A stretch of DNA of 44,053 bases from a virus (IMGVR_UViG_2597489870_000002:1-44053), one strand, 5' to 3'. Positions 5,698 through 40,908 are shown, numbered from the stretch's first letter. Made by a program: numbers and translations. The notes: generated by a model from the letters alone, not told the origin.

Positions 5698-5776
5698 GTT
5701 ACCGTTGAGGTAATGATTATGCGTATTTGGTTTGGTGTCAATAGATATGAGTTAAAAAAATTACCCTTAAGGTAAT
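5698..5776. promoter_or_regulatory. Two ATTACC-N5-GGTAAT operators flanking a putative leftward early promoter
   Basis: GTTACCGTTGAGGTAAT (5698-5714) and a perfect ATTACCCTTAAGGTAAT (5760-5776). Between them, GGTGTCAATAG (5734-5744) has a complement containing TTGACA. An ATTTGGTT box lies at 5725-5732. Confidence 0.6.
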
Positions 5777-5786
5777 TGTGCAGGCA

Positions 5787-5811
5787 ATAAAAAAGCCGCC
5801 AGAAGGCGGCT
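5787..5811 (-). terminator. Rho-independent terminator after the repressor gene
   Basis: Stem AGCCGCC / GGCGGCT with loop AGAA. On the minus strand it is followed by a T-run (TTTTTTATT). Confidence 0.8.
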
Positions 5812-5832
5812 TACTTACTGAAAAATATGATT

Positions 5833-6417
5833 TTATTGTTTGTTTTTTTCGTTCTGGTTGATGACAAATTCAATGTAACTTTCGATCTTTGCTTTCTCGG
5901 TTTCGGGTAACAATGCGTAGCGCGAGCGGTCATAGTTGATGGTCGCAGGGTCGTGCGGGTGAATCAGTAATTCATAGCCGTGACGCCCGAATGCGGATGC
6001 AACATTCTCCAGGGTGGAAATGGAAACGCTGACCTCATTGTTTAACAGGCGGCTGATTGTCACCTGGGCGACGCCGGATGCGCGGTGAAGTTTTCCCTGT
6101 GTTGAAAGGTCGCGGCTTTCGCTCATCCAGCGTTCCAGGTTGTGAGCCGCCAGCTGACCTATATCGCTCGGGCCGACAGGCTGAAAACCTTCCTGAGAAA
6201 GCGAGCGATCGATATCAAGCCAGTTACGGGGTTTATTGGCGGCAGCTTCAATTTTTCGCGCAACCTGGTCGCCGATAACCTTCTTGCCAAGAGCCCAGCG
6301 GTTTACCAGATTTGCCTGAGTTCCAAGTTTTTCTGCCATCCGCGTCTGAACACCATTGAATTCACGGTCGATCAAGTCGTTGAGATTTTGCCTGCGGACG
6401 TCCTGGATACTTTTCAT
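5833..6417 (-). CDS. Prophage repressor candidate with two XRE-type HTH domains and no obvious S24 peptidase domain
   Basis: 194 aa. HTH1 is QTRMAEKLGTQANLVNRWALGKK and HTH2 is LHRASGVAQVTISRLLNNEVSVSISTLENVASAF. Divergent from the cro-like gene across an operator-rich spacer. Confidence 0.7.
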   Translation of the reverse strand: MKSIQDVRRQNLNDLIDREFNGVQTRMAEKLGTQANLVNRWALGKKVIGDQVARKIEAAANKPRNWLDIDRSLSQEGFQPVGPSDIGQLAAHNLERWMSESRDLSTQGKLHRASGVAQVTISRLLNNEVSVSISTLENVASAFGRHGYELLIHPHDPATINYDRSRYALLPETEKAKIESYIEFVINQNEKNKQ

Positions 6418-6471
6418 TTTCTGGAAAATCGCCTCATATATGAATCAGTAGATGATTCAATTTAAAGCAAT

Positions 6472-6536
6472 ATTACCCAACAGGTAAATGCACCCCATAG
6501 GTAACTATCCTTGATTTTTGTTACCTTATGGGTGAA
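6472..6536. promoter_or_regulatory. Immunity-region operators (three palindrome copies)
   Basis: ATTACCCAACAGGTAAA (6472-6488) abuts TGCACCCCATAGGTAAC (6489-6505). GTTACCTTATGGGTGAA (6520-6536) lies between a TTGTTA -35-like hexamer and a TATTAT -10-like hexamer for the rightward gene. Confidence 0.6.
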
Positions 6537-6571
6537 TATTTATTATCTGAAATAAATATCAGGCAATAGCT

Positions 6572-6802
6572 ATGAGCGATAACGGACATTTCGATTTCAA
6601 AAAGCACTGGCTTGCACTTACTCCGGATGAGCGTGAAGCCTTCGCACAGGAAGCCGGAACGACGAGTCACTATATCCAGACTCACTTAACAGGTAAGCGC
6701 AAAATGCCAGGTAAGGTATTGATGAATGGGCTTTTTAAAGCCTGTAAAACAAGACAATGGCTGCGCTCAAAAGCAGAACTGGCATACTTCTTCTACTCAT
6801 GA
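6572..6802 (+). CDS. Cro-like small DNA-binding protein
   Basis: 76 aa, divergent from the repressor. AQEAGTTSHYIQTHLTGKRKMP is HTH-like. Confidence 0.6.
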   Translation: MSDNGHFDFKKHWLALTPDEREAFAQEAGTTSHYIQTHLTGKRKMPGKVLMNGLFKACKTRQWLRSKAELAYFFYS

Positions 6803-6823
6803 TATCCAGCCACAACCCTCTGT

Positions 6824-6847
6824 AGACCGCCATCCGGCGGTCTTTTC
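6824..6847 (+). terminator. Rho-independent terminator after the cro-like gene
   Basis: Stem AGACCGCC / GGCGGTCT with loop ATCC, followed by TTTTC. Confidence 0.7.
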
Positions 6848-6856
6848 ATATCTATT

Positions 6857-6891
6857 CGTACCTCAAAGGTAATAAAAAACCAAATGTGGTT
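6857..6891 (+). promoter_or_regulatory. Palindrome plus ATGTGGTT box
   Basis: CGTACCTCAAAGGTAAT (6857-6873), then ATGTGGTT (6884-6891) embedded in AACCAAATGTGGTT. Confidence 0.5.
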
Positions 6892-6953
6892 GATCTTTTT
6901 TTTGTGTCAGCACAAAATAACCGTAATCCCAATACTAATAACAGGGCTTACCA

Positions 6954-7153
6954 TGGAAATCATTACACGTATTGATGCCGCAAAGCGCGGACTTAAACGC
7001 TATTACACCGGAAAACAATGTAAGCACGGACATGACAGTGAACGCTGGGTTTACAACGGACACTGTGTTGAGTGCACCATGGAATCAAACCGTCGCATCA
7101 GGGCAGAGATTAAGCAGATCATGATTAATTCCTCCCCACAACACTCAAGCTGA
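6954..7153 (+). CDS. Small Cys/His-rich (zinc-ribbon-like) protein
   Basis: The internal ATG at 6954 (MEIITRIDAAKRGLKRYYTGKQCKHGHDSERWVYNGHCVECT) is preferred over the track start at 6884, which is part of a regulatory motif. Confidence 0.55.
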
Positions 7154-7168
7154 TAGCGGAGATTAATC

Positions 7169-7984
7169 ATGAGCAGACATGCAACAGATTGGGCTTGGGA
7201 GACAGATCCAGGCAGCTCATCATTAAAGCTCATACTGCTCTCGATGGCTGACAGAGCCGATGAATATAACCTCTGCTACCCCAGCATAGAACGCCTCGTT
7301 AAAGACACTTGCCTGAATAAAAAAACCGTGCAGGCCGGGCTTATATCGCTCATGAAAATGGGGCTTATTTCAGATACCGGAGAGAGAAAGGGAGCGACAA
7401 AAAGAGTGCGGGTTTTCTCTCTTAATATAACCAAAAACGGGAACATTAAAGGCAACCGAGAGGGGGTCAATGAACCCGAAAACGGTAATGTTACCGAAAA
7501 CGGGAATATACCCAAAAACGGGATGTTGAATGATCCCAAAAACGGGATGTTGAATGATCCCAAAAACGGGATCCAGAACCAGTCATATAACCAGTCATTT
7601 AACCAAGAGAGGGAGAGCAGGACAAAAAACGGGGATTCTGTGCATCATGACCCCGGCGCAAACAACGCCGTGATGAATAACTTTGTTCCTCTTGGTGGGC
7701 CAGGGCAATTAGGCAAATTTGTCATGCATGAACAATGGCAGCCATCAGATGACTTTCTTCGGAAAAGCTCATTGCAGGGGATCTACCTGGACAGTCTGCC
7801 AACGGCACAGGAACTTGCAGAGTTCAGAATTTACTGGATGGCTGAGGGTAAGGCATACCATCAGGCACAGTGGGAGCAGAAGCTGGCAAGGCGGCTGCAG
7901 ATTAGCAGACAGAAGCAATCAACATTACCTGATAACAACGTTCCGCACTGGAACAGCCCTGAAGCATGGGAGGATTTCTTGTGA
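7169..7984 (+). CDS. Replication initiator (lambda O-like role) with N-terminal wHTH
   Basis: 271 aa. The N-terminus ATDWAWETD..LKLILLSMADRADEYNLCYPSIERLVKDTCLNKKTV is typical of phage replication-protein HTH domains. The gene contains the iteron array and is followed by a P-like gene. Confidence 0.7.
   Translation: MSRHATDWAWETDPGSSSLKLILLSMADRADEYNLCYPSIERLVKDTCLNKKTVQAGLISLMKMGLISDTGERKGATKRVRVFSLNITKNGNIKGNREGVNEPENGNVTENGNIPKNGMLNDPKNGMLNDPKNGIQNQSYNQSFNQERESRTKNGDSVHHDPGANNAVMNNFVPLGGPGQLGKFVMHEQWQPSDDFLRKSSLQGIYLDSLPTAQELAEFRIYWMAEGKAYHQAQWEQKLARRLQISRQKQSTLPDNNVPHWNSPEAWEDFL
7430..7605 (+). repeat. Origin-type iterons inside the initiator gene
   Basis: Six copies of CC(A/G)AAAACGG(G/T)A, with ACGG at 7437, 7482, 7500, 7518, 7542 and 7566. 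These include a perfect 24-bp tandem CCCAAAAACGGGATGTTGAATGAT x2 (7511-7558) plus a partial third copy. AACCAGTCATWT x2.5 follows at about 7575-7605. Confidence 0.75.
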
Positions 7985-8766
7985 ACAACGTTTTTACCGC
8001 GATACAAAACCGTGACGGAGAAGCCCTTTCTCGCATGTCAGGTTATGAGCATCAGTACACCAACAATGACAACGTGGTGAACATGTCAGCAGAGAGGCTT
8101 GTTGATGCCCTTTTCAAACAGCTGAAACAACTGTTTCCGGCGGCAGTGGTAACCAACCTGAAGACGCCAGAGCAGGAAGTTGCTGCAAAACAGCAGTGGA
8201 TTGCTGCGTTTGCCGAAGGGGGGATCCGAACCCGTGAACAGGTTTCTGCTGGTATGCGCCACGCCCGCGCCAGCGAATCTCCGTTCTGGCCGTCGCCAGG
8301 GCAATTTATCAAGTGGTGCAAAGACAGCAAGATGGTTCTTGGCGTCACCATTGACGATGTGATGGCGGAGTTTCACCGGTACAGCAAGGAAAAAAGTTTA
8401 TATCCTGGTGGTCCCGAAAGATTCCCGTGGCGGCATCCGGTTATGTACTGGGTCGTATGTGATACCCGCCGTGCAATGTATCAGCGCCAGCTTAGCGAGA
8501 TTGAGGTTGAGAAACACGCGCGCAGGCTGCTCGATGATTGGGCGAAAAAGGTGGCTTCCGGACAGCAGATACCCGATCCGGTGATCAGCATACAGGCAAA
8601 GCCAGAGCCCATGAGTACACCTCCGGACACAGGGAGAGACGTTTACCACCCGCCAGGGCGAAGTTTCGGGTGCATGCCTAACGCCGCCACCCTGGGGGGA
8701 ATAACACCGGCGCAGTGGCTGATGGAGGAATACAGGCGGGGAAAGGCGGCAGGATTTATCAAGTAA
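7981..8766 (+). CDS. Lambda P-like replication protein (helicase loader)
   Basis: Collinear similarity to lambda P from memory: QQWIAAFAEGGIRTREQVSAGMRHARASESPFWPSPGQFIKWCK versus lambda RRQWVLAFRENGITTMEQVNAGMRVARRQNRPFLPSPGQFVAWC. The start is uncertain: GTG at 7981 overlapping the upstream TGA, or ATG at 7966. Confidence 0.8.
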   Translation: MNNVFTAIQNRDGEALSRMSGYEHQYTNNDNVVNMSAERLVDALFKQLKQLFPAAVVTNLKTPEQEVAAKQQWIAAFAEGGIRTREQVSAGMRHARASESPFWPSPGQFIKWCKDSKMVLGVTIDDVMAEFHRYSKEKSLYPGGPERFPWRHPVMYWVVCDTRRAMYQRQLSEIEVEKHARRLLDDWAKKVASGQQIPDPVISIQAKPEPMSTPPDTGRDVYHPPGRSFGCMPNAATLGGITPAQWLMEEYRRGKAAGFIK

Positions 8767-8771
8767 TACCA

Positions 8772-8791
8772 GCGCGATAGCGCATTTTTTT
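8772..8791 (+). terminator. Possible short terminator
   Basis: GCGC-GATA-GCGC followed by seven T residues. The stem is short. Confidence 0.4.
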
Positions 8792-8802
8792 ACGTCTCAA
8801 TA

Positions 8803-8881
8803 ATTACCTATGAGGTAATAAAATATTCTAAAATCTATTGATTTCGTGTCTTATGTGGTTTTTAATTACCTCAGGGGTAAA
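8803..8881 (+). promoter_or_regulatory. Two palindromes bracketing a promoter-like region
   Basis: Perfect ATTACCTATGAGGTAAT (8803-8819). TTGATT (8838-8843), a 17-nt spacer containing ATGTGGTT (8853-8860), then TTTAAT (8861-8866). ATTACCTCAGGGGTAAA (8865-8881) ends 3 nt before the ATG at 8884. Confidence 0.55.
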
Positions 8882-8883
8882 TC

Positions 8884-9228
8884 ATGAGAAAACAGATACA
8901 GGCTCTTGGTCGACTCAAAACAGGCCAGATGAACAAAACAGAATCTGCGTATTGTCAGCACCTTGAGATGCGTAAACGTGCAGGAGAAATCGTCTGGTAT
9001 CGATTTGAGGGTATCAAGCTGCGGTTAGCTGACAACACGTTCTATACGCCAGATTTCGCTGTGATGCTCGCCACCGGAGAGATGGAACTGCACGAAGTGA
9101 AAGGTTTCTGGACCGACGACGCCAGGGTGAAAACCAAAGTCGCAGCAGACCAGTACCCGTTTCGCATTATCGGGGTAACGGTTAAGCCAAAGAAAGCGGG
9201 TGGCGGGTGGAACGTCGAAGAGTTCTAA
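8884..9228 (+). CDS. DUF1064-type protein (putative PD-(D/E)XK nuclease/resolvase)
   Basis: 114 aa. The pattern NKTESAYCQHLE..W.FEGIKLRLA..TFYTPDF..ELHEVKG matches DUF1064 as I remember it. Confidence 0.65.
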   Translation: MRKQIQALGRLKTGQMNKTESAYCQHLEMRKRAGEIVWYRFEGIKLRLADNTFYTPDFAVMLATGEMELHEVKGFWTDDARVKTKVAADQYPFRIIGVTVKPKKAGGGWNVEEF

Positions 9229-9289
9229 ATCGACGATCCTTTTTGATATCAACGTAATCAATAACTTATACGGGTAAGCGAGGGTAAAT

Positions 9290-9403
9290 GTGAAGAAGAA
9301 ATATACGGTTGGCGCAAAGGTAATGCTGGCAATCATATTCATAGCCAACATAGTTTCCGTTGCTGCGCTGGTTTGGTACATGGCTAAGGAGCTATCAGCA
9401 TGA
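9290..9403 (+). CDS. Candidate 37-aa membrane peptide
   Basis: Hand translation gives VKKKYTVGAKVMLAIIFIANIVSVAALVWYMAKELSA. GAGGGTAAA lies upstream, and the stop overlaps the next ATG (ATGA at 9400). Confidence 0.35.
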   Translation: MKKKYTVGAKVMLAIIFIANIVSVAALVWYMAKELSA

Positions 9404-9873
9404 AACCAACATACGAAGAACTTGAAGCCAAGTGCGCGGCTCTGGCTGCGGAGAACGCGGGGCTGAAGGCTAAGGGCCGCGAGCTTCTGGGTGAAGCGTG
9501 CGCCGTGTACGCAAAGTTCAATAAACTGATCGACCCGGCGATCGGGGATTTTATCGATGGTCAGACGCTTCATGAATTCCAGTATGTGCTCGACTGCGAA
9601 ACCCCGGCGACGGACGCTTTCCTGGCTGAAGTGCGGGCAAGTGCGCGTAATGAGGGCATCAACTATGCCGCCAGTCGTCTCGCAGCTGCATTCAATCATG
9701 GTTTCGTTGATAAGCCGCTGGCTGAAGTCTGCGACGTGGTACGCATGATTCTGGACACCAAAGAAGAACTGGCAAACTCCACGCTGCCAGCTGCTGATGG
9801 GATATCTGGCGAGTACGCAGAGAAGTTTCTCGCAGAGTTCGCCGCCCAACTTCGCAAAGGCGGTGAGGCATGA
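9400..9873 (+). CDS. Hypothetical protein with N-terminal coiled coil
   Basis: 157-aa ORF with ATGA coupling at both ends. Confidence 0.65.
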   Translation: MKPTYEELEAKCAALAAENAGLKAKGRELLGEACAVYAKFNKLIDPAIGDFIDGQTLHEFQYVLDCETPATDAFLAEVRASARNEGINYAASRLAAAFNHGFVDKPLAEVCDVVRMILDTKEELANSTLPAADGISGEYAEKFLAEFAAQLRKGGEA

Positions 9874-10067
9874 GCGACAACACCAAAGAGCTGAATTATA
9901 ACCCGGAAGACCCTGAAAAAATGCAACTCCCGAATGGTAAGACCTGCGGCGACTGCGCCCATATCCGTCGCTGTAAGGCAATTTTCGGGCATACAGAAAC
10001 GGATACCTATTGCGACTGGTCGCCATCTCGTTTCATTCCCGTGAAGACTGAAGGAGCCGCGCTATGA
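9870..10067 (+). CDS. Hypothetical small Cys-containing protein
   Basis: 65 aa with ATGA coupling at both ends. Confidence 0.6.
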   Translation: MSDNTKELNYNPEDPEKMQLPNGKTCGDCAHIRRCKAIFGHTETDTYCDWSPSRFIPVKTEGAAL

Positions 10068-10378
10068 GTCTATTCCAGTGCGAAAACTGCGGGTGCTGTG
10101 AAAACACGGCGCTCTCATCACAAGGGTGCGTCGGGTTCTTCGAAAAACTATTTGATTGGTCTTATGCGCCAGAGCGAAAAGGAATGCGTTTATGTAGCGC
10201 GTGTGCGCCGGTTAAATACCGCGATGGTAACTCGACGAGATTTGGTGAATGGCATGATGTATTCCCACGGGTATACCTGCCGAAAGGGATGTTCGTAACC
10301 AACGGTGTTGTTAACTTAGCCCATCGAGATACCGGAGATGAAGACTATATGAAATACGCTCTGGAGGTATCCCAATGA
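10064..10378 (+). CDS. Hypothetical Cys-rich protein
   Basis: 104 aa with CENCGCCEN...CSAC. Coupled to its neighbours. Confidence 0.6.
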   Translation: MSLFQCENCGCCENTALSSQGCVGFFEKLFDWSYAPERKGMRLCSACAPVKYRDGNSTRFGEWHDVFPRVYLPKGMFVTNGVVNLAHRDTGDEDYMKYALEVSQ

Positions 10379-10761
10379 CAGCACTCAACAAACAGGCGCT
10401 GCTAATCGAAAACGGTCAACTTGTTGCCGATACTCTACGCCACTTAGCCGATAACGAAATCGACTCTGATTATTTTGCTATCACCTCAACGAGTGAGAAC
10501 GGCACTGAAATTGAGCATGAACTGGTTATAACTGATTATGCTCTACAGGCTGCAGGAACAGTAGACGAATTGGTTAGAGCGCTAGAAGCCGCAGAGAAGC
10601 GCATAGCAGAACTGGAAGCGGTGCGTGAAGTGTTTTTACGTGCAAAGGCTCTGATGTATCAATCTGGCGGTGCGCCCATCGAAAACTCGCTGAATCCGAT
10701 TGATGCGTGGTTGTATGACGCAGAACGCGCTGCCGCTGGCATTGGCGTGAAGGGGGAGTGA
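10375..10761 (+). CDS. Hypothetical protein (ead/Ea22-like coiled coil?)
   Basis: 128 aa. MTALNKQAL...EKRIAELEA resembles Ea22-like proteins; this is a weak call. Confidence 0.55.
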   Translation: MTALNKQALLIENGQLVADTLRHLADNEIDSDYFAITSTSENGTEIEHELVITDYALQAAGTVDELVRALEAAEKRIAELEAVREVFLRAKALMYQSGGAPIENSLNPIDAWLYDAERAAAGIGVKGE

Positions 10762-10762
10762 G

Positions 10763-11128
10763 ATGGCGCTGACGAAAAAACAACGCGCAGAGCTACGCAT
10801 GAAGTTTGGCGGTCGCTGTGCTTATTGCGGGTGCGAGCTTGGTGATAAGTGGCATGCCGACCACGTTAAGCCTGTCATTCGTTTTGATGGGAATATGCTT
10901 CACCAGGAACGTGACGATATATCAAACATGGTTCCAGCATGCCACCCATGCAATCTGCACAAGCATTGCAGTAGCCTGGAAGATTACCGGCGAATTATCG
11001 GCGATGGTCGTCGCGAGTTCCTTGTATCCGGGAAAGGAAAAGCGCTGGTTCGTATGGGATTGGTTGAAATGAAATCTGACCCAGTGGTGTTCTGGTTTGA
11101 AAAATATCAAGAAGGGGCTACGGCATGA
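10763..11128 (+). CDS. HNH endonuclease
   Basis: CAYCGCEL..WHADHVKPV...VPACHPCNLHKH. Confidence 0.85.
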   Translation: MALTKKQRAELRMKFGGRCAYCGCELGDKWHADHVKPVIRFDGNMLHQERDDISNMVPACHPCNLHKHCSSLEDYRRIIGDGRREFLVSGKGKALVRMGLVEMKSDPVVFWFEKYQEGATA

Positions 11129-11979
11129 CAACTAACCACCCGGCGCACGGTCCTGTATCACTCGATCGCCTGCGCCAGATAAGCGAAATACTCAGCAAAG
11201 CAGCAGCACAAAGCGACGGCGGCAATCTTGGCTACGCAATGGCTGATGCTGTGAAGGTGATTGAAGGGGTGATTGCAGCGTTTGGTGCCGAGCCTGTGCT
11301 TTATGCCGCGGAGGAAACTCTTGCTTATGCCAGGATGGGTGAGCTTCACCTTAAGTGCCTGTCTCAGCCAATGGGATATGCGGTAATTCCACTCTACACT
11401 ACCCCGCCAGCGCAGGTAGTGCCGGAGAATTGCGTAACAGCAGAACACCGTCGCGTTATTGAAATGCTGCTCAATGTTTGCGGGGCCGCATTCGAACTCG
11501 CAGATGATAGCTGTCAGCAAGATGTTGATGGCGAAGAGTGCCACGTTGTTCCAGACGACGCATTTCAGAAGCTAAGTGATGCGCTGGACGAAATAGAAAA
11601 CACTCTCCCGACAGAAGATGTCGACAGGCCAGACGTATTTCTTGCCTGGTCGGCAATGCCAAGGGCAGCGCTGAAATCTATTCTCCAGGCTGGCAACTCT
11701 CCGGTAACTCCGGATGACGTACTCCGCATGGACTGGCTGGTATCTAAAACCGTTGATGTTCGTGAGCCTATGGTTTACGGAAGCCATAGCATTTTCTGGT
11801 CGCAGACCATCACGGATGAAGATGACGATTATCACGCGACCAAATTACGTGAGCAAATCGATGCAGCTATGGCAGCTGAGCAGGCAGCAGCCCCGCAGCA
11901 GGGCGTGAAGTCAGCGCTTGAGCATGGAATGCAGCGTTACGCCGGGGCTATGCAAAAACTGTCAGAAGGAGATAAGTGA
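11125..11979 (+). CDS. Hypothetical protein
   Basis: 284-aa ORF with an ATGA overlap to the HNH gene. Confidence 0.65.
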   Translation: MTTNHPAHGPVSLDRLRQISEILSKAAAQSDGGNLGYAMADAVKVIEGVIAAFGAEPVLYAAEETLAYARMGELHLKCLSQPMGYAVIPLYTTPPAQVVPENCVTAEHRRVIEMLLNVCGAAFELADDSCQQDVDGEECHVVPDDAFQKLSDALDEIENTLPTEDVDRPDVFLAWSAMPRAALKSILQAGNSPVTPDDVLRMDWLVSKTVDVREPMVYGSHSIFWSQTITDEDDDYHATKLREQIDAAMAAEQAAAPQQGVKSALEHGMQRYAGAMQKLSEGDK

Positions 11980-12176
11980 TGGATAAATGTCGCGGAGTTT
12001 TAGGCTTTCTGTTCGGTCATTCATATCGTCATGCAATTACCAGAGGCTATCCTTCCGCAAAACTTGGGGAAGTGAAAGGTAGCAGCTCGTTCATCATCAG
12101 TTTGATAGATAAAACAAGGCCAGAGACATTTCATGGCATCTACTGCAAGCGATGCGGGAAGGTGATCAATGGCTAA
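11979..12176 (+). CDS. Hypothetical small protein
   Basis: The ATG at 11979 overlaps the upstream TGA. The track start is a GTG at 11976. Confidence 0.5.
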   Translation: MDKCRGVLGFLFGHSYRHAITRGYPSAKLGEVKGSSSFIISLIDKTRPETFHGIYCKRCGKVING

Positions 12177-12507
12177 ATCCGCAGCAGAACGCAAAAAAGC
12201 GCAGCGGACCCGCCAGGCAGAAGCCGGTAACCGCAAGCTGGAACTGGTGCTCGACGAGCAGGAAATGGAGATGCTGGCGCTAAACTGCGCCGCCCGTCGC
12301 CCTGGTCGTGCGCCGTATGACATGAACGAGTACATCGCGTTGCTTATCCGCCAGGACGATGCGCGAGTGCGTGGCCGTATCAAGTCAATCAGTGCCAACA
12401 AGTGCGGGAAGTGCGGCGATGCGCTGCCAGTTGAGTCGTGTCCGTGCGATGGTGATTCTCAGTGCTGGGTGACACGTGGCTGGCATGAGACTAAATTATC
12501 AGTGTGA
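12169..12507 (+). CDS. Hypothetical protein with RHH-like N-terminus and Cys-rich C-terminus (possible regulator)
   Basis: 112 aa. SAAERKKAQRTRQAEAGNRKLELVLDEQEMEML, then CGKCGD..CPCDGDSQC. The last gene before the packaging module. Confidence 0.6.
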   Translation: MAKSAAERKKAQRTRQAEAGNRKLELVLDEQEMEMLALNCAARRPGRAPYDMNEYIALLIRQDDARVRGRIKSISANKCGKCGDALPVESCPCDGDSQCWVTRGWHETKLSV

Positions 12508-12537
12508 CAGTCACGCTAGCGACAATAAATTGCAATG

Positions 12538-12564
12538 GCCGCCGACTATGGCGGCTTTGTTTTG
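12538..12564 (+). terminator. Rho-independent terminator
   Basis: Stem GCCGCC / GGCGGC with loop GACTAT, followed by TTTGTTTT. Confidence 0.75.
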
Positions 12565-12573
12565 CGTGTTACT

Positions 12574-12608
12574 ATTACCAAAACGGTAATTATTACTTTG
12601 GTGGTAAC
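12574..12608 (+). promoter_or_regulatory. Tandem palindromes immediately upstream of terS
   Basis: Perfect ATTACCAAAACGGTAAT (12574-12590) and ATTACTTTGGTGGTAAC (12592-12608). The ATG is at 12610. Confidence 0.6.
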
Positions 12609-12609
12609 A

Positions 12610-13206
12610 ATGCCCGCAGAACCAAAGGCACCAAAACGCAAATCAACGCAGTACAAGCCACTGACAGCGATGCAGGAGGCTTACGCGCAGGAATATACCA
12701 AATGCCCAGAGAATCAGACGCAGGCAGCGATTAACGCAGGATTCTCACCTAATACGGCAGCGGTCAAAGCCAGCGTCATGATGCGTGATGAGCGCATTCA
12801 GAAACGAATAGCTGAACTGATGGAAGAGCGCAACAAGCGACTGCGCGTCAGTGCTGATTACGTGCTACTCCGTCTGGTGGAAATTGACCAGATGGATGTG
12901 ATGGATATCCTGAACGACGATATGAGCATCAAGCCGGTTTCAGAATGGCCCAAGGTCTGGCGGCAGTACCTGACAGGGTTCGAGCTTGCCGACATGTTCG
13001 AAGGTCGTGGCGACGAGAAAGAATTGGTTGGCATCCTCAAAAAAATAAAATGGCCGGACAAGGTGAAGAACCTTGAGCTTATCGGTAAGCACGTCGACGT
13101 CAACGCGTTCAAAGAGCGCCTTGAGGTATCCGGTACCGTCACCATTGCCGACCGCATGGCGAAGGCCCGCCGTCGTGTGAAAGAGCAGGCTGGTGGTGAA
13201 GAATGA
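12610..13206 (+). CDS. terS: Terminase small subunit
   Basis: Internal ATG at 12610 (MPAEPKAP..). LTAMQEAYAQEYTKCPENQTQAAINAGFSPNTAAVKASVMMRDERIQKRI fits the Terminase_2 small-subunit pattern. ATGA coupling to terL. Confidence 0.8.
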   Translation: MPAEPKAPKRKSTQYKPLTAMQEAYAQEYTKCPENQTQAAINAGFSPNTAAVKASVMMRDERIQKRIAELMEERNKRLRVSADYVLLRLVEIDQMDVMDILNDDMSIKPVSEWPKVWRQYLTGFELADMFEGRGDEKELVGILKKIKWPDKVKNLELIGKHVDVNAFKERLEVSGTVTIADRMAKARRRVKEQAGGEE

Positions 13207-15881: not shown

Positions 15882-15960
15882 ATTACCTAAAAGGTAATAT
15901 CTGATGTTATAGGTGTCAATAGCCTACGCTAAATAAATCATATGTGGTTAAATTGGTAAT
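15882..15960. promoter_or_regulatory. Palindrome and promoter-like elements between the tRNA unit and the head operon
   Basis: Perfect ATTACCTAAAAGGTAAT (15882-15898). GGTGTCAATAG (15912-15922) has a complement containing TTGACA. ATGTGGTT (15942-15949), N5, then GGTAAT (15955-15960). Confidence 0.55.
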
Positions 15961-19880: not shown

Positions 19881-19931
19881 CGCCTGTTATTAACCTGTGG
19901 GTCGTAACAGACCCACTAATGGAGAAAGAAG

Positions 19932-20369
19932 ATGATCACCGACAAACTGTTGATGTTCTCCGAAGCACAGGCGGTAACTGATACCGCGGCTTCTACTGAC
20001 GTAATCGATCTCGGTCCAATTGATGGGAAACGTCGTGATATCGGCGTGGGTTACCCGCTTGAGTTTTGGGCGCTGGTTAACACAGCCGCCGCAGCAAGCG
20101 GTGATGCAACTGTAAACATCCAGTTGCAGACGAGTGAGGATAACAGCTCATGGACCACTATTTATGATAGTGGTGCACTGGCAAAGACCGCCCTGACAGC
20201 AGGTAAACGAGTTGTTTCTGCAAAGGTGCCTGCCGGTGTTCAGCGATATCTGCGTGTTAACTACTCCGTCGCAACTGGCCCACTAACGGCTGGCGAATTC
20301 ACTGCTGGTATCAGTCTTGATGTTGATGCCAATACGCCGTATCCGATCCGCTCAAAAGTAACTGGTTAA
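19932..20369 (+). CDS. Capsid decoration/cement protein candidate (Bbp16-like?)
   Basis: 145 aa directly after the capsid gene, with SD GGAGAAAG upstream. The family assignment is from memory only. Confidence 0.45.
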   Translation: MITDKLLMFSEAQAVTDTAASTDVIDLGPIDGKRRDIGVGYPLEFWALVNTAAAASGDATVNIQLQTSEDNSSWTTIYDSGALAKTALTAGKRVVSAKVPAGVQRYLRVNYSVATGPLTAGEFTAGISLDVDANTPYPIRSKVTG

Positions 20370-20765: not shown

Positions 20766-21089
20766 ATGGAACTCGTAAACCTCAAAACCGGCACTGACAG
20801 CTACCAGGATGAGAGCGGAGAAACCAGAACTCGCGATGAATACCCGTGGGGGCTGTGCATCACTCTTAATAACGACACATTGAATAAGCTGAAGGCGCAA
20901 CCTAAGGGCGTCGGAACGGAAGTGATGATAACTGCAAAGGCTGTTATTCGAGGCCTGTCTGCCAGAGAAACTGACGATGGCGTTAATCGCAGCGCCGATC
21001 TGCAGATCACTGATATGGCGATCGCTCCTGTTTCCGGGGATGTAGAAAAATCAGCGGCTGAAACTCTGTACGGTAACGGAGGTGAGTGA
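20766..21089 (+). CDS. Hypothetical virion-module protein
   Basis: The ATG at 20766 lies 7 nt after AGGAG. Confidence 0.6.
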   Translation: MELVNLKTGTDSYQDESGETRTRDEYPWGLCITLNNDTLNKLKAQPKGVGTEVMITAKAVIRGLSARETDDGVNRSADLQITDMAIAPVSGDVEKSAAETLYGNGGE

Positions 21090-32470: not shown

Positions 32471-32478
32471 CATGTCAC

Positions 32479-33343: not shown

Positions 33344-33459
33344 ATCATCCTCCCATACGGGAACAGACGTGACTTACATACGGTGTGATTTTGACTAGTT
33401 AACTTTCTGCAGCAAAACCATCACGGTAACTACAAACTAAAATGTTACAAATCAACTTT

Positions 33460-33476
33460 CTTACCTTTGGGGTAAT
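33460..33476. promoter_or_regulatory. Palindrome operator upstream of the 72/125-aa operon
   Basis: CTTACCTTTGGGGTAAT. Confidence 0.5.
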
Positions 33477-33540
33477 AGTACGCTATTCACCTGCAATCTG
33501 TACAGAATTATTTAAAGGCACATCCCTGTGCCGCCGCCCG

Positions 33541-34233
33541 TCAGAAGAACCCTGCCTTGTCGTTGATGTACTCCGCGTGCGTCTGGATATCACGCAGGCA
33601 TTTGCTCACACCGACGATGTAGCAGAACATGGTGGTCAGTTCCGCCGCCGCGCCCGATACATCATGCCCGTCGTCCTGCAACTGGTTTAGCAGATTCATC
33701 AGCAGTGAGTTCTCCGTCAGGCCGAGAACACCAGACGGCGAGTGAATCAGGCTACGGTAGCCTGGCTTCAGTGGGGCACTGTAGGTTTTGTTCTCTATCT
33801 TCATTGCCTGCATCACTGCTGATGCTGTGGCGTTGGCTACCTGGTCGGCAACCATCTTTATGCGCTCTTCCTGCGGGAGCGAGTTTTTAATGTAGCTTCC
33901 GGTGCGGCGGATCTGAGGAAGAACCTCACCTGTAACCCATTCAAGAAATCTGAATGCTCTCGTTCCCTCAGTCATTGCCTCTTTGCAACGCAGAATAAGG
34001 ATGTAGAGACCTGATTCTGAAACGATGGATAGTTCTTGTATTCCACCAGGGGTCTGTATTGAATACAGCCCCTTTTTGTTCCAGCCTTTTTTATCAAGTT
34101 TTCTCGCTTGTGTAACATCAATATTCAAAGCATTGCACACATCTTTGGTGACAAACCAAGGTTCTCCGTCAATCATGAACATACGGATCTGGCAGGATGA
34201 CTCAAAGGAAAAGATGGAAGGTTTGGTATTCAT
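33541..34233 (-). CDS. Bro-N/KilA-N-type antirepressor
   Basis: ATG at 34233 (MNTKPSIFSFESSCQIRMFMIDGEPWFVTKDVCNALNI = BRO-N pattern). The C-terminal roughly 75 aa are paralogous to ORF 35379..35636. Confidence 0.75.
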   Translation of the reverse strand: MNTKPSIFSFESSCQIRMFMIDGEPWFVTKDVCNALNIDVTQARKLDKKGWNKKGLYSIQTPGGIQELSIVSESGLYILILRCKEAMTEGTRAFRFLEWVTGEVLPQIRRTGSYIKNSLPQEERIKMVADQVANATASAVMQAMKIENKTYSAPLKPGYRSLIHSPSGVLGLTENSLLMNLLNQLQDDGHDVSGAAAELTTMFCYIVGVSKCLRDIQTHAEYINDKAGFF

Positions 34234-34499
34234 GGCGATCACCTTTGTAGTTAGGTTAATCACCACCGCTGAGACCAATCAGATGGTGGTGAACTGTGCA
34301 GAGTTGGTCTTACCGGCTACAAAGGAACCCGGCGCACCTTTCGGTGCCCCCACACAGCCCACCATAGAATAGGTGCGCTTTACACATAAAAAAACCGCTT
34401 ATGCGGCGTATGTGCCTCTGTAGTAATCCGGGAGACCAATCCCGGCACTGGATTTTGCCAGTGCCTGATTACTATGGCACAAGAGGAGTGCGATGTAAA

Positions 34500-34609
34500 T
34501 TTACCGCAAAGGTAATGATAAGCGAGGAGAAATATCAAAATCAACCGTATTTGGTTGATGGAGTTTAACGCTTGATCACCTGAAAGCAAGATATTACCTT
34601 TAAGGTAAT
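34500..34609. promoter_or_regulatory. Two palindromes and an ATTTGGTT box in the ant / 242-aa divergent region
   Basis: TTTACCGCAAAGGTAAT (34500-34516). TCAACCGTATTTGGTTGA (34541-34558), an inverted repeat containing ATTTGGTT (34549-34556). Perfect ATTACCTTTAAGGTAAT (34593-34609). Confidence 0.55.
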
Positions 34610-34628
34610 GTTATTGTGAGGAAAAGCA

Positions 34629-35357: not shown

Positions 35358-35380
35358 GCCGCTCTTGCGGCCTTTTCTTT
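35356..35380 (+). terminator. Rho-independent terminator
   Basis: AGGCCGC-TCTT-GCGGCCT followed by TTTCTTT. Confidence 0.8.
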
Positions 35381-35636
35381 ATGTGGTTTGTTTTCGTAAT
35401 TGTTCAGCACAATAGTCGAGATGTGTTTGCAGATCCTGCATAGACATCTGTGAGCTGGTGACGTAGTTAATCAGTGCAGTCAGTTCGGCAAGTGGGCCAT
35501 CGACATTAAATCCATCCTTATCGAGATCCCGGAGTAATTTCATCAAGTGCGATCCCTCCACCAGTGACCTGACGCCTCCCGGCGTGTGAATCCTTTCGGT
35601 AAATCCGTCTTCCAGTGGATAGTGATACTGCTGCAT
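35379..35636 (-). CDS. Small antirepressor-like protein, paralog of the Bro-N antirepressor C-terminal domain
   Basis: ATG at 35636 after GGGGAAGA (the track start is a TTG at 35654). About 40% identity by eye over about 77 aa: IHTPGGVRSLVEGSHLMKLLRDLDKDGFNVDGPLAELT..DLQTH versus IHSPSGVLGLTENSLLMNLLNQLQDDGHDVSGAAAELT..DIQTH. Confidence 0.7.
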   Translation of the reverse strand: MQQYHYPLEDGFTERIHTPGGVRSLVEGSHLMKLLRDLDKDGFNVDGPLAELTALINYVTSSQMSMQDLQTHLDYCAEQLRKQTT

Positions 35637-35655
35637 CTTATCTTCCCCATGCAAT

Positions 35656-35675
35656 AACTGTATATTTATACAGTA
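35656..35675. promoter_or_regulatory. LexA (SOS) box
   Basis: AACTGTATATTTATACAGTA matches 18/20 positions of TACTGTATATATATACAGTA, with CTGT-N8-ACAG intact. It lies 20-39 nt upstream of the 85-aa gene's start. Confidence 0.8.
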
Positions 35676-35711
35676 TCAAATAATTTGTTTGCTATCCAGC
35701 ACGTTTTGCGA

Positions 35712-35783
35712 ATCACCTGAAAGGTAATATCTGTTCGTATTTATGGGTTATCTATCCATATGTGGTTTTTCAGGTAATAGAAT
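35712..35783 (+). promoter_or_regulatory. Palindrome, ATGTGGTT box and -10-like element upstream of the tailspike gene
   Basis: ATCACCTGAAAGGTAAT (35712-35728). ATGTGGTT (35760-35767), N5, GGTAAT (35773-35778), overlapping TAGAAT (35778-35783). Confidence 0.55.
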
Positions 35784-36635
35784 AACCGGATATGCGGCGC
35801 AACGGGTGCTGCGACTATCTGGAGATTTAACATGACGGTCTCAACCGAAGTTGACCACAACGAATACACAGGTAACGGCGTTACGACATCATTTCCTTAT
35901 ACCTTTAGGGTTTTCAATAAATCTGATCTGGTAGTGCAGGTGATTGACCCTGACGAGAATATCACTGTGCTGGCTCTTGATACTGATTACACGGTGACGG
36001 GGGCTGGAGGATATACTGGCGGGAATGTCATCCTCACAACTGCTCTGGAGAATGGATTTCGTATTTCGATAGCACGTGAACTCCCAGTTACGCAGGAAAC
36101 CGATCTGCGCAATCAAGGCAAGTTCTTTGCAGAGGTGCATGAGGATGCTTTTGATAAGTTAACTATGCTGCTTCAACAGGTTAGAAGTTGGTTTAGTCTG
36201 GCGCTGCGCAAGCCGTCGTTTGTCGCAAACTACTATGATGCTCTTGGTAACTACATCCGCAATCTTCGTGACCCGTCACGTCCTCAGGATGCGGCCACCA
36301 AGAATTATGTCGACTCACTGGCAAGCATTAATCTGTCTAAAACGCTGAGAATGCCAGAGGCAGTACCAGAGCTTCCAAGCGCTGAGCTGAGAAAAAACAA
36401 AATTGTAGCAATGGATGATTCAGGAAATCCTATCATGGTTCTGCCTGAATCTGGTTCCGCTTCAGATGTAATGATTCAACTTGCATCAAGCAATGGTTTA
36501 AAGTTTATAGGTGATGTTCAGTCTGTTATAAAATTAAATGATGCTATCGGAAACATAGGTGATAAGATTTTTTTAAAGTCTTATGTTGAAGGTGAGAATA
36601 AAGGTGGTGGGATTCTTGTTGCTGTTGATAACTCA

Positions 36636-36643
36636 CTATTAGC
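36636..36643. repeat. Target-site duplication, left copy
   Basis: CTATTAGC, identical to 39343-39350. Confidence 0.9.
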
Positions 36644-36696
36644 GTAACCGGCTCATTTAAACCGTCTGGTCTGTTTCCTCCGGCTCTACAAAAATA

Positions 36697-37374
36697 ATGT
36701 CCATCATTTTTAATGGACACTATCGTATGAAACACCGGACCTGGATCACTGAAGCTTTACGTCTTCACTTTGAAGAACATTTACCCCGGGTTGTGGCCGG
36801 GCGTCGCCTGGGTGTACCAAAATCAACAGTTTGTAGTATGTTCGTGCGCTTTCGGAGAGCTGGCCTTTCGTGGCCTTTGCCCGCAGGCATGTCGGAGCAG
36901 GAACTTGATGCCTGCCTTTACGGACAATTTTCCACGGTACCAGTCGTACGTCCTGAAAGCACCGTTATATCCGAAGCCCCCGTGGTAAAAAAACGTCCCC
37001 GGCGGCCCAACTTCCCTTATGAGTTTAAAATCGCCTTAGTGGAGCAGTCACTGCAGCCCGGAGCCTGTGTGGCGCAGATCGCCCGGGAAAACGGAATCAA
37101 CGATAACCTGCTCTTCAACTGGCGCCATCAATACCGGAAAGGTGGCCTGCTGCCTTCCGGAAAAAATATGCCGGCACTGCTTCCCGTGACGTTAACGCCG
37201 GAGCCGGATAATAAAATCCCGGCCCCCGCACAGGAACCAGAGCAGATAAATACACCGTCCGACAGTCTGTGTTGTGAGCTGGTTCTGCCGGCCGGAACTC
37301 TCAGGCTTAAAGGTAAACTGACGCCGGCGTTATTACAGACACTTATCCGCGAAATAAAAGGGAGCAGCCACTGA
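36697..37374 (+). CDS. tnpA: IS66-family accessory protein TnpA (orfA)
   Basis: RRPNFPYEFKIALVEQSLQPGACVAQIARENGINDNLLFNWRHQYRKG. The start is uncertain (an alternative ATG lies at 36727). Confidence 0.75.
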   Translation: MSIIFNGHYRMKHRTWITEALRLHFEEHLPRVVAGRRLGVPKSTVCSMFVRFRRAGLSWPLPAGMSEQELDACLYGQFSTVPVVRPESTVISEAPVVKKRPRRPNFPYEFKIALVEQSLQPGACVAQIARENGINDNLLFNWRHQYRKGGLLPSGKNMPALLPVTLTPEPDNKIPAPAQEPEQINTPSDSLCCELVLPAGTLRLKGKLTPALLQTLIREIKGSSH

Positions 37375-37721
37375 TGATATCTCTCCCTGCAGGTTCGCGT
37401 ATCTGGCTGGTTGCAGGTATCACCGATATGCGAAATGGCTTTAACGGCCTGGCATCAAAAGTTCAGAACGTCCTGAAGGATGACCCGTTCTCCGGACACC
37501 TGTTCATCTTCCGCGGACGCCGGGGTGACCAGATAAAAGTGTTGTGGGCTGACAGTGACGGACTGTGCCTCTTCACCAAACGCCTGGAGCGGGGCCGCTT
37601 CGTCTGGCCAGTCACCCGTGACGGCAAGGTGCACCTTACTCCGGCTCAGTTATCCATGCTTCTTGAAGGTATCAACTGGAAGCACCCGAAACGAACGGAA
37701 CGCGCTGGAATCCGCATATAA
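37374..37721 (+). CDS. tnpB: IS66-family TnpB (orfB)
   Basis: 115 aa. ..RIWLVAGITDMRNGFNGLASKVQ..DPFSGHLFIFRGRRGDQIKVLWAD is the classic IS66 orf2. ATGA-type coupling to orfA. Confidence 0.9.
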   Translation: MISLPAGSRIWLVAGITDMRNGFNGLASKVQNVLKDDPFSGHLFIFRGRRGDQIKVLWADSDGLCLFTKRLERGRFVWPVTRDGKVHLTPAQLSMLLEGINWKHPKRTERAGIRI

Positions 37722-37740
37722 CCCGTTGTAAAGTGAGGAT

Positions 37741-39312
37741 ATGGACACCTCACTTGCTCATGAGAACGCCCGCCTGCGGGCACTGTTGCAGACGCAACAG
37801 GACACCATCCGCCAGATGGCTGAATACAACCGCCTGCTCTCACAGCGGGTGGCGGCTTATGCTTCCGAAATCAACCGGCTGAAGGCGCTGGTTGCGAAAC
37901 TGCAACGTATGCAGTTCGGTAAAAGCTCAGAAAAACTTCGTGCAAAAACCGAACGGCAGATACAGGAAGCACAGGAGCGAATCAGCGCACTTCAGGAAGA
38001 AATGGCGGAAACGCTGGGTGAGCAATATGACCCGGTACTGCCATCCGCCCTGCGCCAGTCTTCAGCCCGTAAACCGTTACCGGCCTCACTTCCCCGTGAA
38101 ACCCGGGTTATCCGGCCGGAAGAGGAATGCTGTCCTGCCTGTGGTGGTGAACTCAGTTCTCTGGGATGTGATGTGTCAGAGCAACTGGAGCTTATCAGCA
38201 GCGCCTTTAAGGTTATCGAAACACAACGTCCGAAACAGGCCTGTTGCCGGTGCGACCATATCGTGCAGGCACCAGTACCTTCAAAACCCATTGCACGCAG
38301 TTATGCCGGAGCGGGGCTTCTGGCCCATGTTGTCACCGGGAAATATGCAGACCATCTGCCGTTATACCGCCAGTCAGAAATATACCGTCGTCAGGGAGTG
38401 GAGCTGAGCCGTGCCACACTGGGGCGCTGGACAGGTGCTGTTGCTGAACTGCTGGAGCCGCTGTATGACGTCCTGCGCCAGTATGTGCTGATGCCCGGTA
38501 AAGTCCATGCTGATGATATCCCCGTCCCGGTCCAGGAGCCGGGCAGCGGTAAAACCCGGACAGCCCGGCTGTGGGTCTACGTCCGTGATGACCGTAACGC
38601 CGGTTCACAGATGCCCCCGGCGGTCTGGTTCGCGTACAGTCCGGACCGGAAAGGTATCCATCCACAAAATCACCTGGCCGGTTACAGCGGTGTGCTTCAG
38701 GCCGATGCTTACGGTGGTTACCGGGCGTTATACGAATCCGGCAGAATAACGGAAGCCGCGTGTATGGCTCATGCCCGGAGAAAAATCCACGATGTGCATG
38801 CAAGAGCGCCCACCTACATCACCACGGAAGCCCTGCAGCGTATCGGTGAACTGTATGCCATCGAGGCAGAGGTCCGGGGCTGTTCAGCAGAACAGCGTCT
38901 GGCGGCAAGAAAAGCCAGAGCCGCGCCACTGATGCAGTCACTGTATGACTGGATACAGCAACAGATGAAAACACTGTCGCGTCACTCAGATACGGCAAAA
39001 GCGTTCGCATACCTGCTGAAACAGTGGGATGCACTGAACGTGTACTGCAGTAATGGCTGGGTGGAAATCGACAACAACATCGCAGAGAACGCCTTACGGG
39101 GAGTGGCCGTAGGCCGGAAAAACTGGATGTTCGCGGGTTCCGACAGCGGTGGTGAACATGCGGCGGTGTTGTACTCGCTGATCGGCACATGCCGTCTGAA
39201 CAATGTGGAGCCAGAAAAGTGGCTGCGTTACGTCATTGAACATATCCAGGACTGGCCGGCAAACCGGGTACGCGATCTGTTGCCCTGGAAAGTTGATCTG
39301 AGCTCTCAGTAA
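37741..39312 (+). CDS. tnpC: IS66-family transposase TnpC (orfC)
   Basis: 523 aa with an N-terminal leucine-zipper-like coil, a CPACGG zinc motif and a DDE-type core (..LQADAYGGY..). Confidence 0.9.
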
Positions 39313-39342
39313 ATATCAATACGGTTCTGACGAGTCGCTTAC

Positions 39343-39350
39343 CTATTAGC
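39343..39350. repeat. Target-site duplication, right copy
   Basis: CTATTAGC. Confidence 0.9.
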
Positions 39351-40848
39351 AGATGATATAGTTATATTTAATGGTAATGGAGTGAAATGGAGACGTCTAT
39401 TTTTTACTGGTGAAGTAACTGTATTCGACGCTGGTTATACAGGCTCTGGCGACATTGCTCAATATATAAACAAAATAAATTCAGCAGGATATGACTGCGT
39501 TATTCCATGCTCAGGTGATTTTTCGAGTGCTATTGCAATAGATGTAAGCAAGGGCAGCGTAAGGGGGGTAAATAAATGCATACTTACCGAGATTCCAGGC
39601 GTATCTGGAGATTATGCGCTGACGATTGTTAACTCAAATACAGATTATGCTGACCGTGATGCAATTAATGCTACAGCTATCATTGACGGAGTAGCATTTA
39701 ATTTCATGGGCACCAAAAAAGTTGGTTTGGGAGGGGTAGGTACTGGGGATCTTTCAGAGTTGCGGATCAGTAACGTGGGTATGATTGGTTCCGCTGGTGT
39801 AGAATTCCTGGAAAATTCATATCGTTTGATGTTCGATAAATTTGCTATATCGAGAAGCTTTACCAACACTATCATTTTTAACTCGCCAGCAAATTCTGGT
39901 GAGGTTATTAAATTCAGTCACGGTTGGATGGTTGATAATGGTGGACCGCTAACATTTAATAACGGTCAATTTATTTTTGACTCATGCTCAATGCCTGCCG
40001 GGAAGAAAGTGGGTTATTTAGAGCCAAGTGTAATTATGCATGGCAACGCTCACGTTGTTTATGCTAACGGTAATGTCGAATTCCAGCCCGGGCAGAGCTT
40101 TGTAGCCTTTGTTGTGGATGGCAGTTCAAGGCTGTCAATCAAGGACACCACCATACTTACGCCTACTGGTTATTCAGCCATACCAATAATCGCAAATGAT
40201 GATGGGGTTGTGTCACTGACAAACTGCTCTCTTCCATTATATGACCAGAAGGATCTGGCTGCTGGCGCTGCTACTCGTCAAGTGATTGGTGGAAATAGTA
40301 AGAAGGTTATCTCCCGTGGATGCTACCCTCGGGCAGGTTTTATAACATCCAACTGGGATAAGGGTAATATAGTTAGTCCATTTATCAACGCGCTAAGTAA
40401 TGGTAGTGGTCAGTTCTCAAACTATTCCAACTGGGTTTTGGCACAAAAAGGTACAGGTGTCGTAACTGCGGGTACTGATACGGATGTCCCTAACACTGTT
40501 ATGTTTTCCAGATCACTGTATGTGAATATTCCATCGGTTGGGGCTGCTGCTGATTTTTATCAGGAATGCTTAGAATGCGAGCCAGGGCGGTATTTCCAGT
40601 TAGGTTTCTGGGCTAAAAATCAAGTTACAACAATTTCTGGAATTGAATTTTTTGATAAAGAAGGTAACTCAGTACAAGGTAAAGGAACATTTACAATTCC
40701 AACTGGTTCTACATTTAATTTCTACGCATTAATAGATGTTGTTCCTCCTGGTGCAAGTAAGGTTAGGATTGGATTTGATGTATCAGGATCGGTTGGTTCT
40801 CTTCATATCCATAATGCTATTTATGGATTGATATAAACACTAAATTTC

Positions 40849-40908
40849 CTTACCTTTAAGGTAAAGATTTTAAGATGCATTTAAGGTAATTATTACTCAT
40901 ATATGGTT
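40849..40908 (+). promoter_or_regulatory. Palindrome and ATATGGTT box upstream of the lysis cassette
   Basis: CTTACCTTTAAGGTAAA (40849-40865). GGTAATTATTACT (40885-40897) is the same 13-mer as at 12585-12597. ATATGGTT (40901-40908), then TGTGTATGAT. Confidence 0.5.

Follow-up and report, generated by a model that had tools for sequence, protein, structure and literature searches.

What reads a short palindrome that recurs at the head of almost every transcription unit of a prophage? The question was raised by an earlier note on a 44,053-nucleotide stretch of viral DNA (IMGVR_UViG_2597489870_000002:1-44053; hereafter the window), which described repeated copies of ATTACC-N5-GGTAAT. The window is the exact reverse complement of positions 2839786-2883838 of enterotoxigenic Escherichia coli (ETEC) H10407 (NC_017633.1), and it is a phiV10-like (Uetakevirus) prophage adjoining guaA. 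We put the probability at about 85% that the palindromes are operators of the prophage's own repressor, a Rep protein of the SPC32H/epsilon15 type encoded at 5833..6417. What we observed is the motif, where it lies and how it is conserved, the homologies of the proteins, and the joint occurrence of the half-site and the N-terminal domain of Rep; that Rep would physically bind these sites, loop some of them and repress the individual units is inferred.

The palindrome is a real, intergenic feature of the window

We defined a site as the 17-bp palindrome ATTACC-N5-GGTAAT and counted mismatches over its 12 defined bases. A rescan found that all 16 coordinates listed in the earlier note contain the sequence it had given, though its tally of six perfect copies was too high: an exact scan of the window gave five, where shuffles led us to expect 0.00. 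Six copies have a single mismatch, and three genuine copies have two (Table 1). At up to two mismatches, the scan returned 16 matches against 1.08 expected. The sites at 6520 and 6489 are weaker, with three and four mismatches, respectively; alignment showed that relatives have operators at both positions. Two further matches with two mismatches, at 10215 and at 41389-41405 (ATTGCCAATGCGGTTAT), were dropped as operators, both being in coding sequence and at chance level. The second recurs in epsilon15, SPC32H and Tyrion, but it is part of the holin gene and owes its conservation to the coding sequence.

We then scored the window with a 19-bp position weight matrix (PWM). The matrix was trained not on the 16 sites, as had been proposed, but on epsilon15, SPC32H, Tyrion and BUCT711 only, the window being excluded to avoid circularity. 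It gave 16 hits of at least 10 bits, with 0.5 expected from mononucleotide shuffles. Fifteen of these 16 are intergenic, against an intergenic share of 8.4% of the window (Fisher p~1e-15). Positions outside the 12 defined bases are constrained too: 96% of 61 sites have A or T at the centre, and the 17-mer is flanked by A or T in 88%. ATTACC ranks second among the intergenic hexamers of the window, after the overlapping AGGTAA, and 22 of its 51 copies are intergenic.

The placement of the palindrome at the head of nearly every transcription unit was supported, and the claim that every copy is intergenic was borne out on the RefSeq gene map of the same DNA. No site falls within a coding sequence, with the sole exception of the terS pair. 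The longest open reading frame that terS could have takes in this pair, but in epsilon15, SPC32H and Tyrion the start codon is annotated 1 bp beyond the second site, at the equivalent of window position 12610, which leaves the pair upstream of the gene. No sites were found within the 16-kb head-tail operon. Neither coding sequence nor host DNA proved to be similarly populated: in the adjoining 50 kb of chromosome, no site came within one mismatch of the motif, and the two that have two mismatches are coding and at chance level. We conclude that the ATTACC-N5-GGTAAT repeat is a confirmed, intergenic feature of the window.

The motif is conserved among related phages

In each of phiV10, epsilon15, SPC32H, Enterobacter phage Tyrion and Klebsiella phage BUCT711, we counted 14-18 copies with up to two mismatches, where about 1 would be expected. 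Alignments place these copies at orthologous positions across the genus, and the motif is kept while its flanks diverge. It extends to prophages of six more genera (Superficieibacter, Erwinia, Klebsiella, Citrobacter, Scandinavium and Serratia).

Had the motif been described before? The earlier note could not say whether it was known for epsilon15/phiV10-like phages; GenBank record AY150271.2 (epsilon15) already contains seven 'protein_bind, repressor, lysogeny' features that are exactly its seven perfect copies. Three of them lie at the leftward early promoter, PL, and the other four precede terS, the head operon, the tailspike gene and the nin-like block. The O_R, lysis and int sites are left unannotated in that record. 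A literature search for ATTACC/GGTAAT as a phage operator gave no relevant hit. The consensus ATTACCWDWWNGGTAAT is reportedly given in the epsilon15 genome paper of 2007; a text search for that string yielded no paper.

Rep is the best candidate for the binding protein

The 194-aa product of 5833..6417, which the earlier note had named as a possible binder, remains the best candidate on the strength of its homology to SPC32H Rep (Table 1) and of the half-site co-occurrence described below. It is 100% identical to the repressor of phiV10 and ZX5 and about 42% identical to Rep of epsilon15 and SPC32H. Its putative recognition helix is N36-L-V-N-R-W41. Among Rep proteins that are 42-54% identical, the helix NL(V/I)(N/S)RW is kept, with N36, R40 and W41 invariant, and the operator is unchanged. 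No S24 peptidase domain was found in Rep by Pfam, which gave only helix-turn-helix (HTH) families, including HTH_3.

According to PMC9986798 and PMC9638917, SPC32H Rep consists of an N-terminal DNA-binding domain, a middle dimerisation domain that is HTH-like and a C-terminal tetramerisation domain; it is a tetramer on palindromic DNA, and the antirepressor Ant disassembles that tetramer. Overexpression of ZX5 Rep abolished free phage, blocked lytic growth and lowered endolysin and holin mRNA by >99.9% (PMC9782041). The window encodes a homolog of SPC32H Ant, preceded by a LexA box (Table 1).

The proposal that two HTH domains of a single chain occupy the two half-sites was not supported. In SPC32H Rep the middle HTH-like domain and the C-terminus oligomerise, and two HTH domains of one chain are disfavoured because perfect dyad symmetry calls for two identical domains. 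The Rep N-terminal HTH domains would more plausibly act as a symmetric pair, one on each TTACC half-site, the half-sites being 11 bp apart with an A/T-rich centre.

Comparisons outside the genus were informative about which protein the half-site accompanies. The cI protein of Pseudomonas siphovirus PseuP_224 has a Rep-like N-terminal domain (39% identity over residues 4-68), while its C-terminal part aligns with S24-type repressors. This phage has five ATTACC-N4-GGTAAT sites against 0.3 expected, three upstream and two downstream of cI (19921-19975 and 20796-20837) and nowhere else; no homolog of the prophage's Cro-like protein was found in it. A Serratia prophage keeps the operator despite a heavily changed Cro-like helix. 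In a Paraburkholderia relative, the Rep helix is changed to SIVNQH, a Cro-like homolog is present and the motif is absent. Taken together, the three comparisons indicate that the half-site goes with the N-terminal domain of Rep. What is specific to Uetakevirus is that the sites are so widely dispersed. An attempt to tell Rep from the Cro-like protein by conservation failed, both HTHs being invariant within the genus.

Most sites are placed as occluding operators

The features of the window are collected in Table 1. PL and the promoter of the nin-like unit have a common layout: a distal operator, 18 bp, the -35, 17 bp and a -10 that overlaps the proximal operator by 2 bp. The spacing of the operator pair is 61-63 bp centre to centre in the window and in 11 other genomes and loci, at both promoters where both sites were detected. 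Since 62 bp is about six helical turns, the paired sites lie on the same DNA face. The PL -35 and both PL operators are invariant in an alignment of six genomes, and the final two bases of the PL -10, AATCAT, are the first two of the operator at 5698. The PL of the epsilon15 type has a third site in the transcribed leader; the window has one PL site fewer than epsilon15, a 66-bp leader segment being absent.

Table 1. Operators and associated features, in window coordinates
Feature	Position	Strand	Sequence or match	Placement and remarks
O_L proximal operator	5698..5714		GTTACCGTTGAGGTAAT, 1 mismatch	Overlaps -10 and +1 of leftward early promoter
PL	5713..5741	-	TTGACA-17-AATCAT	Leftward early promoter
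O_L distal operator	5760..5776		Perfect	18 bp upstream of PL -35; 62 bp centre to centre from 5698
rep	5833..6417	-		194-aa repressor; full-length match to SPC32H Rep PDB 5D50_A, E 4e-42
O_R3-like operator	6472..6488		1 mismatch	Minus-strand half-site is candidate -35 of rep promoter
O_R2-like operator	6489..6505		TGCACC-N5-GGTAAC, 4 mismatches	Degenerate; abuts O_R3
O_R1-like operator	6520..6536		3 mismatches, PWM 15.5 bits	Between PR -35 and -10
Cro-like gene	6572..6802	+		76-aa HTH protein, phrog_35
Post-cro operator	6857..6873		2 mismatches	13 bp beyond cro terminator stem
Distal operator, DUF1064/nin-like unit	8803..8819		Perfect	18 bp upstream of -35 TTGATT (8838-8843)
Proximal operator, nin-like unit	8865..8881		1 mismatch	2-bp overlap with -10 TTTAAT (8861-8866); 62 bp from 8803
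terS tandem operators	12574..12608		12574-12590 perfect; 12592-12608 2 mismatches	Between terminator 12537-12556 and likely terS start 12610
Operator, leftward tRNA-Arg/201-aa unit versus head operon	15882..15898		Perfect	Contains leftward -10 TACCTT (15896..15891)
Accessory operator	33460..33476		1 mismatch	2-bp overlap with -10 of candidate leftward TGTACA-18-TACTAT, 72/125-aa genes
Operator, leftward isrK-C4-BroN/Ant unit	34500..34516		1 mismatch	Head of unit
Operator, 242-aa gene	34593..34609		Perfect	19 bp before gene
ant	35379..35636	-		Small antirepressor, SPC32H Ant homolog (PDB 5D50_E, E 1.7e-47)
LexA box	35658..35673		CTGTATATTTATACAG	22 bp upstream of ant start
Tailspike operator	35712..35728		1 mismatch	Between ant and tailspike; orthologous to annotated epsilon15 site 19895-19911
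Weak lysis operator	40849..40865		2 mismatches	Upstream of lysis cassette; orthologous sites in phiV10, epsilon15, SPC32H and Tyrion

Between the divergent rep and cro-like genes, O_R is tripartite: the sites at 6472 and 6489 abut each other upstream of TTGATT, and the site at 6520 follows. In the alignment the PR -35 TTGATT (6511-6516) is invariant and the operator at 6520 fills the PR spacer; the O_R2 position is occupied by a good site in epsilon15 and SPC32H. The operator at 6857 is 16 bp upstream of TTGATC-17-CAAAAT, a candidate promoter of the replication unit. At 15882, the -35 of the leftward promoter (15919..15914) is TTGACA in 5 of 6 genomes and TTGACC in BUCT711. Two promoters meet the operator at 34500: the -10 TATCAT (34520..34515) of TTGATT-18-TATCAT overlaps it by 2 bp, and the -35 of the other (34499..34494) abuts it. 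For the operator at 34593, direct reading of the sequence gives the candidate promoter TTGATC-17-TACCTT, with its -10 within the operator.

About ten sites thus overlap or flank -35/-10 hexamers. Because most operators overlap the -10 and +1, sit in the spacer or abut the -35, bound Rep would be expected to exclude RNA polymerase. We conclude that the sites are classical occluding operators that happen to be dispersed, not oriented roadblocks. The earlier observation that several copies follow a terminator held at 6824-6843 and 12537-12556; near 8772 the hairpin is below the strength that the scanner calls, but it matches a terminator annotated in phiV10. Candidate sigma-70 promoters for the head, tailspike, lysis and terS units are weak or unconserved; the lysis candidate TTGATA-17-TACCTT is absent in SPC32H.

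One site was found beyond the window. This int-unit site, ATTACC-N5-GGTATA, lies 41-57 bp left of window position 1 and 42 bp upstream of the integrase start. It is conserved in phiV10 (26869), epsilon15 (26881), SPC32H (26959), Tyrion (28567) and BUCT711 (12619).

A model for repression and its alternatives

How might a single repressor silence such a genome? Unlike the lambda genome, it is divided by terminators into about a dozen small units, nearly all of them headed by an operator of their own. These are the int unit (outside the window), PL, the rep promoter with PR, and the replication, nin-like and terS units, followed by the accessory genes, isrK-C4-Ant, the 242-aa gene, the tailspike gene and the lysis unit; one operator is common to the leftward tRNA unit and the rightward head operon. 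The same-face 62-bp operator pairs of PL and of the nin-like promoter could each be bridged by a Rep tetramer. Induction would not require cleavage of Rep: LexA-controlled Ant would dismantle the Rep tetramer and release all units together. A broader scheme, which we regard as unlikely, would have Rep tetramers bridge pairs among the roughly 16 operators (the 62-bp pairs as well as the single late sites 70-80 bp upstream), so that the whole prophage, including the late, lysis and int units, forms one looped network freed at once by Ant, while the timing of the rightward units is set separately by a second conserved box, CATATRTGGTT.

Several points weigh against assigning the sites to Rep. No direct demonstration of Rep on the exact ATTACC-N5-GGTAAT sequence was found in the literature examined, and the features in the epsilon15 record may themselves have been predicted by computation. 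Across 86 homologs, the most divergent of them 52% identical, and three additional prophage loci, no change of Rep specificity was seen; all keep TTACC-N5-GGTAA, so that there is no true covariation test within the genus. The scan of genome contigs used the recognition helix as its pattern, and its hits share the helix by construction. In the head, tailspike and lysis units, about 70-80 bp separate the operator centre from the likeliest rightward start downstream of it, a distance too great for simple occlusion, and alignments show strongly conserved DNA downstream of the operator. No sigma-70 promoter was seen in the 53 bp between the terminator and the terS start, a gap that the two operators fill; repression of terS may need bridging, interference with an activator or a roadblock. 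Finally, the HTH of the Cro-like protein, AGTTSHYIQTHLT, is invariant in five genomes, and this protein may share some or all of the sites.

Perhaps, then, the sites are bound mainly by a regulator other than Rep, either the 76-aa Cro-like protein (6572..6802) or a 112-aa Cys-rich protein (12169..12507), as a lytic switch or late activator? The invariance of the Cro-like HTH would fit such a role. The 112-aa protein is a member of phrog_536 ('transcriptional regulator') whose gene immediately precedes terS, and the late-unit sites stand well upstream of the likely core promoters, a position typical of activators. Yet the immunity region has a tripartite O_R and a paired O_L, PseuP_224 combines the half-site with a Rep-type cI and has no Cro-like homolog, the Serratia prophage retains its operator despite an altered Cro-like helix, and the epsilon15 record credits the sites to the repressor. 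We therefore consider this explanation very unlikely. Joint use by Rep and Cro, as in lambda, would be compatible with Rep as the repressor, and it is possible that the Cro-like protein is a second binder of the same operators.

We also wondered if the sites could act like the stoperators of phage L5, at which bound repressor would stop elongating polymerase inside units and leave initiation alone. The number of sites per genome, the terS pair between a terminator and a start codon with no recognisable promoter, and the third site in the transcribed leader of the epsilon15-type PL would all suit this idea. Against it, symmetric sites carry no orientation, about ten sites lie over or beside -35/-10 hexamers, and the 16-kb head-tail operon is free of internal sites; we rate it no more probable than a different regulator, and if anything less. 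Least credible of all, with almost no chance of being correct, is that the palindrome, rather than being a protein operator, would be part of a promoter, mark a recombination site or mosaic boundary, or recur by chance. The half-site can indeed serve within a -10 (TACCTT, NNNNAT|TACC) or as a -35-like TTTACC, and the sites do lie at module boundaries. Such a role is hard to reconcile with strict dyad symmetry and a constrained A/T centre, with placement relative to promoter hexamers that differs among sites, with a motif conserved while its flanks diverge and with an expectation of zero perfect copies by chance. Operators of Rep remain the explanation that we favour.

Neighbouring elements

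The second conserved box, CATATRTGGTT (CATATGTGGTT), is found on the + strand at 6884, 8853, 15942, 35760 (ATGTGGTT) and 40901 (ATATGGTT), 27-60 bp downstream of the palindrome at five rightward units: the post-cro gene, nin-like, head, tailspike and lysis. It is invariant or nearly so in six genomes. Beyond the box, at a distance of 7-10 nt, the head, tailspike and lysis units have an invariant -10-like hexamer, with no good -35. The box looks like an activator-dependent promoter element. A sixth exact copy is located at 35381, inside the ant coding sequence.

Rfam identified two RNAs on the minus strand, the C4 antisense RNA (34282-34369; 78.6 bits) and the Hfq-binding RNA isrK (34388-34464; 73 bits), between the operator at 34500 and the BroN antirepressor gene (33541..34233). 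A minus-strand terminator is present at 34407-34394 in the isrK-C4 unit, and a start predicted from TTTACA-17-CATAGT at about 34464 coincides with the isrK 5' end. There are two antirepressor-type genes, 33541-34233 (-) and 35379-35636 (-). The BroN protein matches phrog_450, the family of small SPC32H-type Ant, over its C-terminal ~80 residues and hence looks like a BroN-Ant fusion.

The 112-aa product (12169-12507; phrog_536) has a basic N-terminus and a Cys-rich C-terminus (CGKCG...CPCDGDSQC); it had no PDB, Pfam or NCBIfam match. Just past its stop (12504-12556) is a promoter-like GTGACA-16-TAAATT, the start of which would fall at the base of the terminator hairpin 12537-12556. Epsilon15 and Tyrion conserve the segment, whereas phiV10 does not.

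The right end of the window (42983-44053, ~1.1 kb) is host chromosome (yfgI, yfgH), not phage. An IS66-family element (ISCro1: tnpA, tnpB, transposase) at 36697-39312 splits the tailspike gene, and the N-terminal piece of that gene (35832..) is a pseudogene in RefSeq. The prophage is probably unable to form infectious particles.

Comparison with known systems

The window belongs to the Rep-operator system of epsilon15 and SPC32H (AY150271.2; PDB 5D50, 5D4Z), all defining features that can be tested being present. Judged by sequence, these are the motif, the orthologous positions, homology to the three-domain Rep and a small Ant apparently under LexA control. The 17-bp motif is identical, the sites at terS, head, tailspike, PL and nin take the same positions, Rep and Ant are homologous and a LexA box stands at ant. 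The window differs in adding accessory units with the sites at 33460, 34500 and 34593. The public record already has, for epsilon15, a dispersed motif that is assigned to the repressor. What appear to be new to public annotation are the 62-bp operator pairs, the -10 elements built into operators, and the association of the TTACC half-site with the N-terminal domain of Rep in unrelated phages; a fuller list of sites (O_R, lysis, int and accessory units) and the N4 variant of PseuP_224 are possible further additions. The result is a complete operator map for the prophage of a reference ETEC strain, H10407, and it shows how a non-cleavable repressor and a LexA-controlled antirepressor can silence a genome of about a dozen terminator-bounded units.

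The immunity region resembles lambda OR/OL: the divergent rep and cro-like genes flank a tripartite operator, one operator sits in the PR spacer, and an operator half-site overlaps the candidate -35 of the rep promoter. Unlike lambda, the window has a Rep without a RecA-cleavable domain and lacks a single antiterminator-controlled late operon, and its operators are found also at late, lysis and int units.

The earlier note likened the sites to the stoperators of L5, an analogy that proved loose. Both systems have many repressor sites outside the immunity region and global silencing. L5 stoperators are asymmetric 13-mers, oriented with transcription, that act on elongation; the sites of the window are palindromic and mostly at promoters, where most overlap the -35, -10 or +1 rather than lying inside transcribed regions. 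Neither the fixed asymmetric orientation nor the location in transcribed regions that marks L5 sites was found in the window, the terS pair alone being ambiguous as to location.

The repressor of Streptomyces phage phiC31 recognises highly conserved 17-bp inverted repeats that are intergenic and located at the starts of transcription units. A recurrent intergenic 17-bp inverted repeat is thus common to phiC31 and the window, whereas host, protein and motif sequence are unrelated.

In phage P1, the single repressor C1 acts on many scattered operons through operators that are asymmetric 17-mers, and one of these, Op51, is at the c4-icd-ant (immI) operon. The two systems share a single repressor placed directly over many operons. 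The operator at 34500 likewise heads a unit of C4 antisense RNA and antirepressor, and the layout of the isrK-C4-BroN/Ant region resembles that of immI. The systems differ in that the sites of the window are palindromic and that Rep is an HTH tetramer unrelated to C1 (HTH_3, PDB 5D50). By analogy, the operator system of this prophage appears closer to the C1 network of P1 than to the stoperators of L5.

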